Shown here piece by piece: positions 2,917 to 59,885 of a DNA stretch of 64,000 nucleotides (its first letter is position 1; every line of letters begins with the position of its first letter). The stretch comes from a virus (Duplodnaviria; Heunggongvirae; Uroviricota; Caudoviricetes): IMG/VR virus record IMGVR_UViG_2740892439_000009; one strand, 5' to 3'. The position numbers and the translations under genes are program-made. Below the pieces are notes generated by a model that saw only the letters and a list, made by a program, of their open reading frames with translations, made no database searches and had not been told where the DNA came from.

Positions 2917-3380
2917 AATACGATGCGCATCAGTTCAAACGTGCGGGGAATAGACTCAACAACAGCCAGAAAGCATTTAAGCGATATCTTATTCGGGACA
3001 TGGAAAAGCTGGCGCGTTTGGTTGAGCGCCTCAGCCGTGCAATGGCCCCGCTGGAAACCGGATCTCTGGAGACAGCCATCTTTGCCAGGGTGATTAAAGA
3101 AGGTTATTCAGGGCTGCGCATTGAGCTTTCTGTGTCTGGAGCAAAACCACGTCAGGGGCATCCGGGCGTAGAAGTCGGTGACTATGCTAAGTACATGGAG
3201 CTGGGTAAATACCGACTCGGTTATCTTTCTCGAATGAAGAACGTGACAAACCCACCAATTGCCGGTGTTAAACCTCGTGTTGGGCCACACTTTCTGGAAA
3301 GAGCGGTGGAAATTAGCGAGAAGCAGTTCTCAGAAGCGATTCTTGAGGCTGCCAGAAAAGCCGGTTTTACGAGAGGTTAA
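2907..3380 (+). CDS. Putative tail completion protein (Z-like by position)
   Basis: 157-aa ORF overlapping neighbours; synteny only. Confidence 0.4.
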   Translation: MGLKYDAHQFKRAGNRLNNSQKAFKRYLIRDMEKLARLVERLSRAMAPLETGSLETAIFARVIKEGYSGLRIELSVSGAKPRQGHPGVEVGDYAKYMELGKYRLGYLSRMKNVTNPPIAGVKPRVGPHFLERAVEISEKQFSEAILEAARKAGFTRG

Positions 3381-3381
3381 T

Positions 3382-3765
3382 GTGTTTATTGAAGCGTTTG
3401 CAAGTTTGATGCAGAAGGCAAAGATTGGCACGGTCGGGACTGACATTTTCTGTCACTACTTGCCTGCCAATGTGAAATCTGGCGTCCTGCTTATTAACCC
3501 AAATACCGGCATCAGCATCGATCATGAGCTACAGGGCTTTTATCACGAATCATTCACAATCATTGTGCGTGGTTCGTCAATTACTACGACGGTTGAGAAA
3601 GCCAATAAAATCATTGAGATGTTTCCAGTAGAGGAAACGGAATCTGGTGGTGTGTATTTTCGACTTGTACGACCGATGGCGATGCCAATCATTTATCCCA
3701 AAAATGATGGGGCATTAATAGAAGCAGGCATTCCTGTTGAATTTGCTGGCTATTTATTGAATTAA
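3382..3765 (+). CDS. Putative tail terminator (U-like by position)
   Basis: GTG at 3382 after GAGAGG; same frame as ORF 3259..3765; size about 127 aa. Confidence 0.4.
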   Translation: MFIEAFASLMQKAKIGTVGTDIFCHYLPANVKSGVLLINPNTGISIDHELQGFYHESFTIIVRGSSITTTVEKANKIIEMFPVEETESGGVYFRLVRPMAMPIIYPKNDGALIEAGIPVEFAGYLLN

Positions 3766-3839
3766 CTCAATTGGTAAGTATATACTTACTATTAGCGCAA
3801 TGAATGCGTAGAATTAACGGAAAAAGGAGTTTTCCATCA

Positions 3840-5315: not shown

Positions 5316-5622
5316 CAAGGGAATGTCACAAAACGTAGAGTTTATCCTGTCGCTGGAAGACAAACAGTTTACAGCGTCAATCGATCGTGCGGGGAAACTG
5401 CTTACTCGATTTGGTGAGCAGGTAACAAAGCCTGCTCAAAAAATCCAAACCTTTGAACGCTCTTTGGGTTCGGTCGCCCGTATCATTGGCGTTCTGGAAA
5501 GCAAGCTCGATTCTACGGCAGATAAACTACAGGATGTAGCTGCCGGTTTTGAGCTTGCTTCAGATGCTACGCGTAAAATGCGTGGCAACATCACCAGCCT
5601 CAATTCTGGTCTTAAAGCCTGA
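5302..5622 (+). CDS. Tape measure protein, N-terminal segment
   Basis: Coiled-coil-like ORF; the next frame opens at 5616 and continues the same sequence character. Confidence 0.45.
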   Translation: MAEDDKGMSQNVEFILSLEDKQFTASIDRAGKLLTRFGEQVTKPAQKIQTFERSLGSVARIIGVLESKLDSTADKLQDVAAGFELASDATRKMRGNITSLNSGLKA

Positions 5623-40068: not shown

Positions 40069-40143
40069 GATGGTGTAGCTCAGCGGTAGAGCAGTTGGCT
40101 GTTAACCAACTGGTCGGTGGTTCGAATCCACCCACCATCGCCA
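40069..40143 (+). tRNA. tRNA-Asn (anticodon GTT)
   Basis: Acceptor GATGGTG/CACCATC, D-arm GCTC..GAGC, anticodon loop CTGTTAA, T-loop TTCGAAT, encoded CCA. Confidence 0.8.
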
Positions 40144-40148
40144 ATTTA

Positions 40149-40235
40149 GGGGAGTTAGTCCGTAGAGGTAGCGGTGTAGACTGTAAATCTACTGTCATTG
40201 CGACTCGGGTGGTTCGACTCCATCACTCCCCACCA
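40149..40235 (+). tRNA. tRNA-Tyr (anticodon GTA), long variable arm
   Basis: Acceptor GGGGAGT/ACTCCCC, anticodon arm GTAGA-CTGTAAA-TCTAC, T-loop TTCGACT, CCA. Confidence 0.75.
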
Positions 40236-40239
40236 AATT

Positions 40240-40315
40240 GCCGGTTTAGCTCAGTTGGTAGAGCGCTGCCTTGTAAGCAGGATGTCAGCGGTTCGAGTCC
40301 GCTAACCGGCACCAA
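40240..40315 (+). tRNA. tRNA-Thr (anticodon TGT)
   Basis: Acceptor GCCGGTT/AACCGGC, D-arm GCTCAGTTGGTAGAGC, loop CTTGTAA, T-arm AGCGG-TTCGAGT-CCGCT, CCA. Confidence 0.7.
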
Positions 40316-40538
40316 TACAACGATAAGATCATTACGGTTAATCGTCGTTCATGTGCACAATGACTGGTCGAAAGGTAGTGATCTTACCGTTGTGGTGGAT
40401 TCGCAGACTGATGCGATAGCTTTCTTGGATGTTAGGGAAATGCGGCCGCAAATCTTCCCTTTCGCGAGCGGTGATCGTCCGTAGTCCTAATTGGCTGCAC
40501 CGTATGCCGGAGATTCAGTACCGGCCACCACAACGGCC

Positions 40539-40625
40539 GGAGAGTAGGGAGCATGGTGCTCAAGCGGTCTTGAAAACCGTCCCATTGCGCAAGCGATGAT
40601 GGTTCGATTCCATTACTCTCCGCCA
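40539..40625 (+). tRNA. tRNA-Ser (anticodon TGA), long variable arm
   Basis: Acceptor GGAGAGT/ACTCTCC, anticodon loop CTTGAAA, T-loop TTCGATT, CCA. Confidence 0.75.
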
Positions 40626-45656: not shown

Positions 45657-47036
45657 ATGTCTAAAAAACGTTCCATCAAAGAGGTTCAGGACTTCCGTGA
45701 CAGTGTAAAACGAGTAGTCGCTCTCCTTTCAGGTAAAAACATCCCTGTTGCAGAACGAGGGGACGACGCTTATGTACGCTATAACGATGATGGAGAGCCA
45801 ATTCTCGTAAACATCCCATCAATCCCGGATAACGCAACACCGGCATTGATGAATGCTGTGCGCGGATTTCTCGATCATGAGGTTGCTCACATTTTGTTTA
45901 CCGATATTCGTGTGTCCAACAAAATGAGAGAAAAAGGACGCGTTCCTTCCTGGTCGCTATGGAATGCCTTAGAAGACGTGTTCATCGAGCGAAAAATGGG
46001 GCAGGTCTTTAACGGAACAAGACGTAATCTGATGGCAACTCAGCGCCTTATAATCGAAAAAGTCTTTAAACCAAAGGCTTCAGAGGCTATTGCTTATTGT
46101 GGCAAAGATCAGCGCGCGCTTTTTCTAAACTTCTTTCTCTGTCCGGTTGTAAGAGCCTGGGATGGCCAAGCACCGTTCGTAGATTTCATGGATGAATATT
46201 GGCCTGTCATTGAGAAACCAATTTCATTATTAAAAGAACATGGTATCGATGTGGCCGTGCGTAACATGTCTTGCACCGAGGATTGTGTAAAGGTGGCTGC
46301 GACCATAGCTAAGATCCTCAAAGACACTGAAAGTGAAAGCAAAGGTAAGGAGTCAGCTCCGGGAAAAACTTCCGATCCTTCAGACGCTGACCAGACGGAT
46401 GCCTCTGGAGAAAACAATGAAGACAACGAAGATCATGAGACACCCTCATCGTTAGATAATCACAAATCTATCGAATCAGAATCACATAGTAAGCACAAAC
46501 ATGATAATAACGACAGCGATGATTCAGATAATTCTGAATCATCAGAAACAATATTCGATGATACAGAAAATGATAAAGAGGTATCAGATTCTGATGCTTC
46601 TGATAACGCGGCGTCAGAATCATTAACCGCTGACCACGAAAAAAGAAAAACGACAGAAGACGGCTCTTCAGATATCCCAACTCCGTCAAAAATGAGTCTG
46701 GAAGAGGCTTTAGAGGAGCTGGATAGCATAGAAGATGAAGTCGGAGGCATGACAGAAGATGCTCTATCCGAAACGATTAAAAGCGAGTTAACAGAAAGCT
46801 CGAAAAGCGAATACAGGCCATACAATCGCTCATACGACTTCATCGGCTCGATTGATCAGGCAGAAGCCATATCAAACGGCTTATTAAAACATTCTCCGAT
46901 ATTGATTTGGGAGGATATCCAATCAGCCGCTATCGCATCGTTCCTGAAGGCAACCAGCTCTTCGACAAATATATTGAAAAGCATCTTTCGTCAGGTGTTT
47001 CGTCGACGCTGGCAAAAGACCTGGAGCGAGCAATAG
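45657..47036 (+). CDS. CobT-like protein, N-terminal segment with acidic Ser/Asp-rich linker
   Basis: Long acidic low-complexity tract; continues into vWA segment in another frame. Confidence 0.45.
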   Translation: MSKKRSIKEVQDFRDSVKRVVALLSGKNIPVAERGDDAYVRYNDDGEPILVNIPSIPDNATPALMNAVRGFLDHEVAHILFTDIRVSNKMREKGRVPSWSLWNALEDVFIERKMGQVFNGTRRNLMATQRLIIEKVFKPKASEAIAYCGKDQRALFLNFFLCPVVRAWDGQAPFVDFMDEYWPVIEKPISLLKEHGIDVAVRNMSCTEDCVKVAATIAKILKDTESESKGKESAPGKTSDPSDADQTDASGENNEDNEDHETPSSLDNHKSIESESHSKHKHDNNDSDDSDNSESSETIFDDTENDKEVSDSDASDNAASESLTADHEKRKTTEDGSSDIPTPSKMSLEEALEELDSIEDEVGGMTEDALSETIKSELTESSKSEYRPYNRSYDFIGSIDQAEAISNGLLKHSPILIWEDIQSAAIASFLKATSSSTNILKSIFRQVFRRRWQKTWSEQ

Positions 47037-56368: not shown

Positions 56369-56441
56369 GAAGGAGTGTACCGGTGAATTATCTCTTCGTA
56401 GATGGCAATAGCTGGGTTATTACCACCAACAATCTGACAAA

Positions 56442-57594: not shown

Positions 57595-58668
57595 ATGGCA
57601 AAAGGAAAATCCGCACTGGCACTTGCTCTGAAAAAGAAAATCGGTAGCAACGACGAAATTCAGAAAGTAACTCATTGGATTGACACAGGCTTTCCTCCGT
57701 TAAACAAAGCTATTTCTGGTCGTTACGATGGCGGCTTCCCATGTGGTCGTATCGTCGAAGTATTCGGTCCTCCAAGCGCGGGGAAAACGTTCCTTGCAAC
57801 AGCAGCGATGATCTCCGCTCAAAAACAAGATGGTCTGGCGGTATTCCTCGATCATGAAAACAGTTTTGACGTTGGCCTGGCTGTAGCCAATGGCCTGAAC
57901 GCAGATGAGGATGACGGTCAGTGGGTATACAAGCAGCCAGATACCTTCGAAGACTCTGTAGAGTTGATCGGCACAATACTTAAATTGGTTCGTGATGAAG
58001 AGCTTATCCCCGAATCAGCACCTATCTGTATCGTGGCTGACTCTCTTGCGTCTATGGTTCCGAACTCCAAAGCCGAGAAGTTCGAAAAGATGGCTGAAGG
58101 CACTGCCAAAGACAAAGATCAGCTAAACATGAACGACAATACGGCACTGGCTCGTGCGACGAGTGCGAACTTCCCTACTCTGGCTTTGTGGGCACGCAAA
58201 TACAACGCCTGCATCATCTTCTTGAATCAGGTTCGCACAAAAATCGGTGTAATGTTTGGCGACCCTACTACGTCGCCAGGTGGAGATTCACCGAAGTTCT
58301 ACGCTTCTGTACGTATCCGTCTTGGTGCATCGGTGATGAAGGATGGTAAAGAGAAGATCGGCCAGGACGTAGGCGCAGAATGCATCAAAAACAAAGTTGC
58401 ACCACCGTATGGCAAATGCACCTGGAAATTCTACTTCGATCCTACTCGTGGCCTCGACGTTATCGAATCGCTCGTCGAGTACATGCTGGAAGAAGGATAC
58501 CTGCCAAAGAACGCCAGCGGGCGAGTTGAAATTGGTGACAAGAAATACACAAAATCGCAGATCGTCGAGATGTATCGGGAGAAGCCACTGGCTGAAATCA
58601 TTGCGGCTTTGCAGGCAATCGACGACCGAAGAGCAAAAGACAACCCCACCGAGTCAGTAGAAGAGTAA
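57595..58668 (+). CDS. RecA/UvsX-like recombinase
   Basis: GRIVEVFGPPSAGKT Walker A region and overall pattern parallel RecA. Confidence 0.75.
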   Translation: MAKGKSALALALKKKIGSNDEIQKVTHWIDTGFPPLNKAISGRYDGGFPCGRIVEVFGPPSAGKTFLATAAMISAQKQDGLAVFLDHENSFDVGLAVANGLNADEDDGQWVYKQPDTFEDSVELIGTILKLVRDEELIPESAPICIVADSLASMVPNSKAEKFEKMAEGTAKDKDQLNMNDNTALARATSANFPTLALWARKYNACIIFLNQVRTKIGVMFGDPTTSPGGDSPKFYASVRIRLGASVMKDGKEKIGQDVGAECIKNKVAPPYGKCTWKFYFDPTRGLDVIESLVEYMLEEGYLPKNASGRVEIGDKKYTKSQIVEMYREKPLAEIIAALQAIDDRRAKDNPTESVEE

Positions 58669-58712
58669 ACACAAGGCGTCCACATGACGCCTTTTTTATC
58701 TCTTGAAAATAC

Positions 58713-58728
58713 ATAAGTACTTACTTAT
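58713..58728. promoter_or_regulatory. Palindrome ATAAGTACTTACTTAT
   Basis: ATAAGTA / TACTTAT arms with 2-bp spacer. Confidence 0.4.
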
Positions 58729-58760
58729 TATTTTCGCATAACAACCACATAGGAAAACAC

Positions 58761-58961
58761 ATGATCAAAATCTATCTATTGGCAGTAGCCACAGGCCTTT
58801 CAGTGGCTCTCATCTACGGTTTACTGGTTCCATCGCTGATTTCTACCAAGAGTGATTTAGCCGTCATGTTTGGAGTTGTCGTTGGTTTTGGCGCTCCAGT
58901 AATCGGTCTTATTGGTGGTCGTAAGTTTATTAACTCATTAATCAAAGCAAAGGGGAAATAA
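58761..58961 (+). CDS. Small hydrophobic membrane protein
   Basis: 66 aa, two hydrophobic stretches. Confidence 0.45.
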   Translation: MIKIYLLAVATGLSVALIYGLLVPSLISTKSDLAVMFGVVVGFGAPVIGLIGGRKFINSLIKAKGK

Positions 58962-59095
58962 GTAATGAAGAAAGGTTTACTTGCAGTTGCTCTGGCGGCT
59001 ATTTGCACAATGGGTCTTACTGGCTGTGATCGCGTGGAGCTGGATACGTTGGCATCAAAGTAAACAAATTAGGTGAAGACAAAGGGATTGGTGAA

Positions 59096-59794
59096 GTGGT
59101 TGGCGTTGGTCGCCAATGGACAGGTCTTAACACCGAACTTTACGTATTCCCAACCTTCAAACAAATGAAGACCTACGACGAGCCGTTCACATTCCAGATG
59201 AGTGACGGTACTGCTATTGGTCACAAAATTGGCGTTGCGTATCTGGTTAATCGTGACAAGGTAACGACGGTGTTCCAGACCTATCGCAAAGGCGTAGACG
59301 ATATCACCGAATCAGATCTGCGTCAGAAAATTGCCGACTCTCTAAACCGTTTGGCCAGCCGTATGACCACTGATTCATTTATCGACGGTGGTAAGGCGCA
59401 ATTGCTGGACAACGCACTTAAAGATATTCAGAAAGAGATGTCTCCGGTTGGTATTGAGGTACTGAGCCTGTCATGGGTTGGAAAACCTGATTACCCAAAA
59501 ACCGTCATTGAATCTATCAACGCCAAAGTAACGGCTAACCAGCGTACTCTGCAACGTCAGCAGGAAGTTGAACAGCGTAAAGCTGAGGCGAATATGCTAC
59601 GTGAACAGGCTAATGGTGAAGCTGATGCTATCCGTGCTCGTGCGCAAGCAGAAGCAGACGCCATTCGTCTGCGCGGTGAAGCTCTGCGTCAAAACCCGAA
59701 CGTTATGGAGCTGGAAGCCATCAATAAATGGAATGGCCAGTTACCGCAGTACATGACTCAAGGGGCTAACACTCCTTTCATTACAGTGAAATAA
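59096..59794 (+). CDS. SPFH/band-7 domain protein
   Basis: GYVGIKVNKLGEDKGI-type N-terminal region in frame upstream of the called start; a lipoprotein signal peptide (58965-59063) lies in another frame. Confidence 0.55.
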   Translation: MVGVGRQWTGLNTELYVFPTFKQMKTYDEPFTFQMSDGTAIGHKIGVAYLVNRDKVTTVFQTYRKGVDDITESDLRQKIADSLNRLASRMTTDSFIDGGKAQLLDNALKDIQKEMSPVGIEVLSLSWVGKPDYPKTVIESINAKVTANQRTLQRQQEVEQRKAEANMLREQANGEADAIRARAQAEADAIRLRGEALRQNPNVMELEAINKWNGQLPQYMTQGANTPFITVK

Positions 59795-59808: not shown

Positions 59809-59837
59809 TCAGGCGTCCAGTTGGACGCCTTTTTTAT
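59809..59837 (+). terminator. Rho-independent terminator
   Basis: AGGCGTCC agtt GGACGCCT followed by TTTTTT. Confidence 0.6.
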
Positions 59838-59885
59838 CGCAATTATCTTATTAAGAAAACAATTTGTTTAAAGGGTCAAGAAAAT

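Follow-up and report, generated by a model that had tools for sequence, protein, structure and literature searches.

The gene pair described here lies within the window, a stretch of viral DNA of 64,000 nucleotides that was analysed as a whole. The surrounding region matches SSU5/pHCM2-type phage-plasmids of E. coli, with Cyrano, PhiR41_1 and CMS-2020a among its phage relatives. A total of 186 plasmid records match the region, 179 of them at a coverage of at least 80%. Almost all of the matching plasmids are non-mobilizable, and the four that were fetched are typed as rep_cluster_488. Among complete E. coli genomes, 195 of 5426 (~3-4%) harbor the region at near-full length. Upstream, the pair is preceded by genes for SSB, an exonuclease and RecA; downstream, it is followed by DUF7238, a Cra-like gene and RepA. 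The locus consists of the following features:

58673..58700, + strand: intrinsic terminator after recA, the upstream cassette boundary (stem AAGGCGTCC/GACGCCTT, then a T-run; detected in a terminator scan and kept in relatives)
58703..58731, + strand: sigma-70-like promoter TTGAAA-17-TATTAT (10 of 12 consensus matches; predicted by consensus match alone)
58761..58961, + strand: gene for a 66-aa partner protein with two transmembrane helices (PHROG 1130; core Y-G-L-L-V-P-x-L-I-S-x-K-S-D, basic C-terminal tail), with the ribosome-binding site AGGAAA 6 nt upstream
58965..59794, + strand: single SPFH lipoprotein gene, broken by a 1-nt deletion (276 aa in relatives)
59039..59041, + strand: site of the missing C, GAG-C-TGG as compared with GAG-CC-TGG in relatives (the intact form is a CCTGG Dcm motif)
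59811..59838, + strand: intrinsic terminator after the SPFH gene, the downstream cassette boundary (AGGCGTCCAGTTGGACGCCT, then a T-run)

Both promoter hexamers are kept in CMS-2020a, PhiR41_1 and CP056250; Cyrano has TATCAT. The two terminators are near-duplicates of each other (2 matches as compared with 0 expected). The phage-plasmids carry the pair as a self-contained unit that comprises a terminator, a promoter-like site, the two genes and a second terminator. In lambdoid prophages the pair belongs to the leftward operon, where the S24 repressor and xis/int flank it. The genes are either translationally coupled or form a self-contained promoter/terminator cassette.

The first gene encodes the partner. 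The sequence-only reading had placed a 66-aa hydrophobic protein ahead of the SPFH gene, and the protein is present at 58761-58961 with an ATG start (MIKIYLLAVATGLSVALIYGLLVPSLISTKSDLAVMFGVVVGFGAPVIGLIGGRKFINSLIKAKGK). It has two hydrophobic segments and matches PHROG 1130, annotated as 'membrane protein' in the moron/auxiliary category, at 1.7e-24. The gene is intact in the window, and its product shares 94% of its residues with the representative of the nearest cluster. An example of the same PHROG is CYRAN_56 of Cyrano, which shares the length of 66 aa, the two helices, the core Y..LLVP.LIS.KSD and the position directly upstream of the SPFH gene. More generally, a homologous ORF of 62-78 aa with two transmembrane segments is found immediately upstream of the SPFH gene, with either a 3-nt gap or a stop/start overlap, at every locus examined that has enough intact upstream sequence (46 SSU5-like IMG/VR loci and 34 prophage loci). 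Such partners occur in phiP27, where the ORF is unannotated (2235-2423 of our locus L005), as well as in prophages of E. coli/Shigella, Klebsiella, Salmonella, Pantoea and Lelliottia. The exceptions are two loci in which IS1 replaces the upstream DNA (L101 and L102) and a decayed copy in a symbiont (L106). No such partner was found beside a 37%-identical homologue from Bacteriovoracaceae (L107).

Partner sequences diverge more than those of the SPFH proteins: identities to the window copies range from 24 to 70% for the former and from 71 to 95% for the latter. Five residues (Y5, Y19, S28, G38 and P46) never vary, and the core Y-x-L-L-V-P-x-L-I-S-x-K-S-D covers the end of helix 1 and the loop. 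Since the C-terminal tail is basic, both termini are probably cytoplasmic, and the conserved loop would face the periplasm, on the side predicted for the SPFH domain. We note that the two transmembrane helices fill nearly the whole protein, and that it has no match in Pfam or NCBIfam at E<=0.1. In the window, PHROG 1130 and PHROG 200 are matched by adjacent, co-oriented genes, with the partner upstream and separated by 3 nt.

The second gene encodes the SPFH protein, whose reading frame is discussed below. The sequence-only reading had named a failed domain search as a reason to discard the SPFH assignment; the search supports it. The protein matches the Pfam family Band_7 (PF01145) with an E-value of 4.5e-29 and 102.2 bits, as compared with a gathering cutoff of 23.6, across positions 5-176 of the 176 positions of the profile. 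After restoration of the frame the protein also matches PHROG 200 ('lipoprotein') at 3e-108. A structure prediction of the monomer with AF2 (mean pLDDT 76.8, core blocks 80-95, low confidence for the C-terminal 30 residues) consists of an N-terminal signal helix, strands in 21-95, helices in 97-162, a strand in 164-176 and a continuous helix in 179-243. The model thereby displays the pattern of cage formers, in which a long helix succeeds the SPFH alpha/beta domain. Foldseek matches the model to HflK/C (7vhq/7wi3), erlin1/2, prohibitin, stomatin, flotillin and QmcA-YbbJ (8z5g), all with a probability of 1.0 at 13-18% identity. The E-values for HflK/C, erlin, prohibitin, stomatin and flotillin range from 1e-14 to 1e-8, with 5e-14 for HflK/HflC, where the similarity of fold extends over the full length. 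A profile built from 34 homologues gave weak matches to HflK and prohibitin-2 among solved structures. The SPFH assignment is solid.

The closest relatives are the members of PHROG 200, exemplified by CYRAN_57 of Cyrano ('Stomatin-like integral membrane protein'), a PhiR41_1 protein ('putative lipoprotein'), WP_000715581.1 and L05 of phiP27, the latter annotated as 'lipoprotein/putative serine protease'. They share the N-terminus with the lipobox and the motif CDRVEPG, as well as the upstream partner gene; the sole difference is the C missing at 59040 in the window, which splits the ORF. The equivalog cutoffs of NCBIfam are not reached, neither for HflC (TIGR01932, 30.2 vs 134.4 bits) nor for HflK (TIGR01933, 18.7 vs 159.4 bits). 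The cage of HflK/HflC around FtsH (7vhq, 7wi3, 9cz2) resembles the phage protein in the combination of an SPFH domain with a long helix and in the predicted periplasmic location at the inner membrane. However, the identity is ~17%, the phage protein is putatively anchored by a lipid whereas HflK/C are anchored by an N-terminal transmembrane helix, and the phage has a single paralogue of half the size of HflK instead of a K/C heteromer. The protein is a member of a separate SPFH subfamily and no orthologue of HflK/C. Neither protein of the pair matches a defence model of PADLOC-DB v2 at E<=0.1.

The SPFH gene is not contiguous in the window. The ATG at 58965, 3 nt after the partner ORF, opens with MKKGLLAVALAAICTMGLTGC and yields an ORF of 32 aa that carries the lipoprotein signal (MKKGLLAVALAAICTMGLTGCDRVELDTLASK) and ends at a stop at 59063. 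The SPFH frame is shifted by -1 relative to this frame; it is open from 59030 to 59794, with GTG 59096 as its first canonical start. In the broken gene, frame 0 carries the signal peptide, the LTGC motif with Cys21, and Asp22, and extends as far as 59039; from 59040 the -1 frame takes over, with the SPFH domain, the long helix and the C-terminal tail.

Comparison with relatives explains the arrangement. An uninterrupted ORF of 831 bp (276 aa) is found in all eight aligned relatives (Cyrano, PhiR41_1, two CMS-2020a records, CP056250, CP116917, CP103659 and MF554642), each of which has GAGCCTGG. In the DNA alignment the window lacks one C of GAG-CC-TGG that is present in all eight, with otherwise almost identical flanks. 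The missing C falls within 59030-59096, the stretch that had been singled out for checking. Likewise, the full 276 aa are encoded in one segment in all 46 IMG/VR loci of the lineage. With the C put back the window encodes MKKGLLAVALAAICTMGLTGCDRVEPGYVGIKVNKLGEDKG..., a protein identical in 276 of 276 residues to the product of ~25 IMG/VR loci. The restored protein shares 99% identity with the most populous cluster in the database (P0029, 848 members), 93-99% with other phage-plasmid copies and ~72-80% with copies from prophages. As had been expected, the lipoprotein signal is part of the SPFH protein, since relatives encode both in one ORF of 276 aa with the LTGC lipobox. The statement that the signal lies in a neighbouring frame is true of the sequence as given, and the frame change is without biological meaning, being due to a private 1-nt deletion. 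An exact search with a 32-mer across the deletion found no occurrence in viral, genome-representative and metagenome collections. Three records (CP116917, CP103659 and MF554642) match with one base less and were considered as carriers of a shared deletion allele; their 831-bp gene is intact and the indel is intergenic.

The deletion at the SPFH gene is one of several. The window was compared with close relatives, namely CP056250 for 43-63 kb and CP019002 together with CP019283 for 1-25 kb. Ten private 1-nt deletions were found, at 5617, 7393, 15599, 23261, 24699, 46866, 49229, 56411, 59039 and 61350, and no private insertion relative to the same relatives in these two regions. Two relatives confirm the five deletions in 1-25 kb, and four or five confirm those at 56411 and 61350; for those at 46866 and 49229, CP056250 was the sole relative compared. 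A further apparent deletion at 40265, in a tRNA-Thr gene, was left out of the count because the aligned relative is 86% identical there. In nine of the ten deletions, the lost base belongs to a G or C run that is two or three bases long. Nine of ten are located in coding sequence, which equals the coding density and hence implies no selection against them. The genes split in this way are the tape measure gene (twice), a 12-kb tail gene (twice) and the genes for a tail fibre, a CobT-like protein, an exonuclease, the SPFH protein and a Cra-like protein. One base put back per site restores a tape measure protein of 1507 aa, a tail protein of 4052 aa, a tail fibre of 479 aa, a CobT-like protein of 702 aa, an exonuclease of 314 aa, the SPFH protein of 276 aa and a Cra-like protein of 70 aa. 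These lengths are those annotated in relatives, and no other lesion is found in these genes.

The missing C at 59040 is most probably a consensus error, introduced by basecalling or assembly, because nine further private 1-nt deletions, mostly in short runs of G or C, break essential genes that are otherwise intact. Frameshifts in a single direction, spread according to coding density, located mostly in G/C runs and unaccompanied by decay argue for an error of the consensus and not for evolution. With respect to a specific cause, modification-induced nanopore errors at Dcm motifs are documented (PMC11610603). Within the window, a C is lost at two of 29 aligned CCWGG sites, including the site at 59039. 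Such errors do not suffice as the sole cause, as only two of the ten deletions occur at CCWGG and 114 CCWGG sites are intact. Very probably, therefore, the locus is an ordinary two-gene cassette with one SPFH gene of 276 aa, split by a lost C that is most likely an error of the consensus.

The main alternative is a genuine and very recent inactivating mutation, by which the SPFH gene of this phage-plasmid copy would be a fresh pseudogene. Its products would be at most a mature lipopeptide of 12 residues and possibly a leaderless cytoplasmic fragment starting from GTG 59096. The frames are indeed separate in the given sequence, and natural lesions of the module exist: Ca. Symbiopectobacterium (L106) has a truncated copy, IS1 takes the place of the partner ORF in the Shigella/E. 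coli loci L101-L102, and PHROGs includes fragment families of the SPFH lipoprotein gene. However, the remaining ORF is without decay and 100% identical to intact copies, and the allele is unique across the viral, genome and metagenome collections. The mutation would also have to coincide with nine further private 1-nt deletions that inactivate genes for the exonuclease and for structural proteins (tape measure, tail and tail fibre), again with no other lesion. We consider a genuine mutation unlikely. Programmed -1 ribosomal frameshifting, or some other form of recoding that would connect the lipoprotein signal with the SPFH body, is effectively excluded: the SPFH frame does lie at -1 relative to the signal frame, and the zero-frame ORF ends with TCA AAG TAA, so that slippage of tRNA-Lys from AAG to AAA on A-AAG just 5' of the TAA at 59061 is conceivable, as is known for AAG beside a stop from frameshifting in E. 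coli in general, but no heptamer of the form X XXY YYZ is present in the overlap (59030-59063), the product would carry LDTLAS in place of the invariant PGYVGI, and all relatives have one open frame that needs no recoding, with the two-frame layout in none of them.

For the intact gene, the location of the protein can be predicted from sequence rules. The N-terminus, MKK-GLLAVALAAICTMG-LTG-C21, consists of a basic n-region, a hydrophobic h-region and a lipobox that conforms to [LVI][ASTVI][GAS]C. The lipobox cysteine is conserved in at least 90% of 34 homologues. The following Asp22 belongs to the highly conserved motif DRVEPG; one alignment (A2, 10 sequences) has it throughout, and in another (A3, 34 sequences) at least 90% have it. 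Lipidation is not universal in the family, as a common natural variant (P0033, 175 contigs) has a Tyr in place of the lipobox cysteine. Asp at position +2 is described as a LolCDE-avoidance signal that retains lipoproteins in the inner membrane (PMC5727369). The SPFH protein is accordingly predicted by its signal motifs to be a lipoprotein retained in the inner membrane. A lipid anchor kept there would place the SPFH domain on the periplasmic face; the domain should therefore be oriented like that of HflK/C and unlike that of the stomatin QmcA, which faces the cytoplasm.

Taken together with the fold, these patterns suggest how the intact pair might work. The SPFH precursor would be exported and lipidated at Cys21, and the conserved Asp at +2 would keep the lipoprotein in the inner membrane. 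On the periplasmic face, the SPFH domain and the helix of ~65 residues may oligomerise into a ring or cage, as in HflK/C, prohibitin and erlin. The co-translated hairpin of two transmembrane helices would serve as the integral-membrane partner, with its ends in the cytoplasm and its conserved loop in the periplasm. The analysis establishes the structure of the genes, their families, the class of fold, the conserved signal motifs and the linkage of the partner; we infer the location, the oligomerisation, the contact between the partners and the biological role from sequence patterns and fold similarity. As to the role, our best guess, a tentative one, is an effect at the level of the envelope, by which the entry of superinfecting phage DNA is blocked or the envelope is protected or, somewhat less probably, a membrane protease such as FtsH is modulated. 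Superinfection exclusion and membrane remodelling, the roles named by the sequence-only reading, are likewise guesses.

Several phage superinfection-exclusion proteins are membrane-located, namely Imm and Sp of T4, SieA of P22, gp15 of HK97, the lipoprotein Ltp of TP-J34 and Llp of T5. In its predicted form the pair resembles these proteins in that they are small, anchored by membrane segments or lipids, face the periplasm and are often encoded in accessory cassettes. To our knowledge, none of them is an SPFH protein, and we know of no kinship in sequence or fold between them and the pair. In the literature that we searched on SPFH proteins in connection with phage-plasmids, superinfection exclusion or defence against phages, the family has no functional study, and PM0222 of Pasteurella multocida (see below) was the sole lead. 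A 2026 paper on another phage calls the reason for its SPFH lipoprotein unclear (PMC13239085).

A somewhat less probable reading than the blocking of DNA entry, and one that we regard as rather doubtful, is that the pair mimics HflK/C and cages or modulates FtsH of the host, thereby tuning the turnover of a lysis-lysogeny regulator or of an envelope enzyme. HflK/HflC and further extracytoplasmic cages associated with proteases head the fold matches. The profile matches to HflC and HflK, weak as they are, and the predicted periplasmic orientation point in the same direction. The position of the pair in lambdoid prophages, where it shares the leftward operon and has the repressor on one side and xis/int on the other, is also consistent with such a role; in lambda the corresponding region carries cIII, an inhibitor of FtsH. 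On the other hand, the identity to HflK/C is ~17%, the scores are far below the equivalog cutoffs (30 vs 134 bits), and the protein lacks the N-terminal transmembrane segment and the cytoplasmic part of HflK; the link to FtsH is drawn by analogy. We know of no SPFH protein that has been shown to cage FtsH or to block superinfection on behalf of a phage. By analogy, the pair may be a phage-borne cage of the HflK/C type with a specific role, either the caging of FtsH or the blocking of superinfecting DNA, and we hold this broader proposal as a possibility that is tentative as a whole.

We consider it improbable that the lipoprotein is a factor of lysogenic conversion or virulence, one that would leave the cell in vesicles and affect the animal host as a TLR2 agonist. 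The precedent is PM0222, an SPFH protein similar to HflK/C that a prophage of Pasteurella multocida encodes and that is reported to be associated with OMVs, to induce cytokines in a TLR1/2-dependent manner and to be required for full virulence (PMC9872710); the likeness to PM0222 is one of description rather than of sequence comparison. Against this reading, the Asp at +2 predicts retention in the inner membrane and not release, and the family is common in phage-plasmids of commensal E. coli from many sources.

The least probable reading takes the pair to be a canonical NfeD-SPFH operon of bacteria, similar to YbbJ-QmcA or YqiJ-YqiK and carried by a phage, with a stomatin-type cage that faces the cytoplasm. 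The sequence-only reading had likened the genes to the pairs of a membrane partner and an SPFH protein in bacteria, and a gene for a small membrane protein beside an SPFH gene is the hallmark layout of such operons. The phage pair shares with QmcA-YbbJ (8z5g), YqiJ-YqiK and NfeD2-FloA of B. subtilis the gene order and a probable co-assembly, and QmcA-YbbJ is among the fold matches. The likeness does not extend to the partner itself: an NfeD identity was rejected, as the protein has no profile match in Pfam or NCBIfam and its 66 aa leave no room for the C-terminal OB-fold domain of NfeD. Nor does the SPFH protein fit, since a cleavable lipoprotein signal replaces the N-terminal hairpin or transmembrane segment and the protein should face the periplasm as a secreted lipoprotein, in contrast to hairpin-anchored stomatins that face the cytoplasm. 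The best fold matches are moreover the extracytoplasmic HflK/C, erlin and prohibitin, which rank above QmcA. We consider such an operon very improbable.

The gene pair is already known, being annotated in hundreds of records and widely conserved, and the split of its frame is ordinary. For the window, the systematic under-calling of single bases means that findings of split genes, frameshifts or overlapping frames need to be checked against relatives prior to interpretation. The pair is widespread, with occurrences in ~180 plasmids, in 195 of 5426 complete E. coli genomes and in many enterobacterial lambdoid prophages. The role as a cage, if true, would be a property of the gene family and not of the frameshift in the window. 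The assignment of a function to the pair would be a modest advance for a widespread accessory module of phages, and not a surprising one.

Besides the single-base deletion that breaks its SPFH gene, the window carries nine further 1-nt deletions that are private with respect to its close relatives, at positions 5617, 7393, 15599, 23261, 24699, 46866, 49229, 56411 and 61350, mostly within G/C runs of 2-3. The tape measure gene and the 12-kb tail protein gene are each split twice by such deletions, and the tail fibre, CobT-like, exonuclease and Cra-like genes are split as well; putting one base back at each deletion repairs the broken gene. Frameshift-type findings anywhere else in the window are to be held suspect.

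The features discussed below are as follows.

Features in the window and in the compared loci
Window, 40069-40625: four tRNA genes (Asn-GTT, Tyr-GTA, Thr-TGT, Ser-TGA)
Window, 57595-58668: recA; intein insertion point in relatives at ~57785
Window, 58674-58696 and 59811-59834: flanking terminator pair, a near-identical direct repeat (AGGCGTCC...GACGCCTTTTT)
Phage phiP27 (L005, NC_003356), 2235-2423: unannotated 62-aa ORF with two TM segments, homologue of the 66-aa protein of the window
Shigella flexneri and E. coli chromosomes (L101/L102), ~2650-2970: IS1 in place of the partner ORF
Ca. Symbiopectobacterium, symbiont genome (L106), 3001-3153: SPFH gene cut off after 50 aa
Bacteriovoracaceae MAG (L107), 2956-3816: distant SPFH lipoprotein, 37% identity

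The phiP27 ORF runs 4 nt into the beginning of the SPFH gene, annotated there as L05 'lipoprotein'. In records of Stx-converting phages the SPFH gene is wrongly labelled 'serine protease'. In PHROGs, phrog_21428 and phrog_38808 are separate families that cover nothing but the ends of the SPFH protein (N-terminal 60 aa, C-terminal 61 aa), and one database protein (P0046) joins Band_7 and the DUF7238 encoded downstream in a single fusion; public records thus repeatedly contain calls of the SPFH gene that are broken or mis-joined.

The IS1 replacement, in which IS1 sequence lies directly 5' of an intact SPFH gene, and the truncation in the symbiont genome are natural disruptions of the module. 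In the window, the terminators form a short direct repeat on both sides of the two genes (2 matches, versus 0 expected by chance), which could be a mark of module acquisition or could promote module loss by recombination.

Upstream of the module, RecA of the window is an uninterrupted protein of 357 aa. In most relatives RecA has 779 aa, and its Walker-A (GPPSAGKT) region is interrupted by a LAGLIDADG homing-endonuclease intein of 1263 bp; the related plasmid CP116917, like the window, lacks the intein. The intein is a presence/absence polymorphism among the phage-plasmid population. The tRNA cluster region differs considerably from the aligned relative (86% identity).

The SPFH protein itself also varies. 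A common variant of Enterobacteriaceae phage-plasmids (P0033, on 175 contigs) has GIIGY in place of GLTGC; with Tyr at the position of the lipobox Cys it cannot be lipidated, and it may be signal-anchored or cleaved in another way. The Bacteriovoracaceae homologue, with no small 2-TM partner upstream, keeps the LTGC lipobox but has Glu at +2. The lipid-anchored SPFH type therefore reaches beyond enterobacterial phages.
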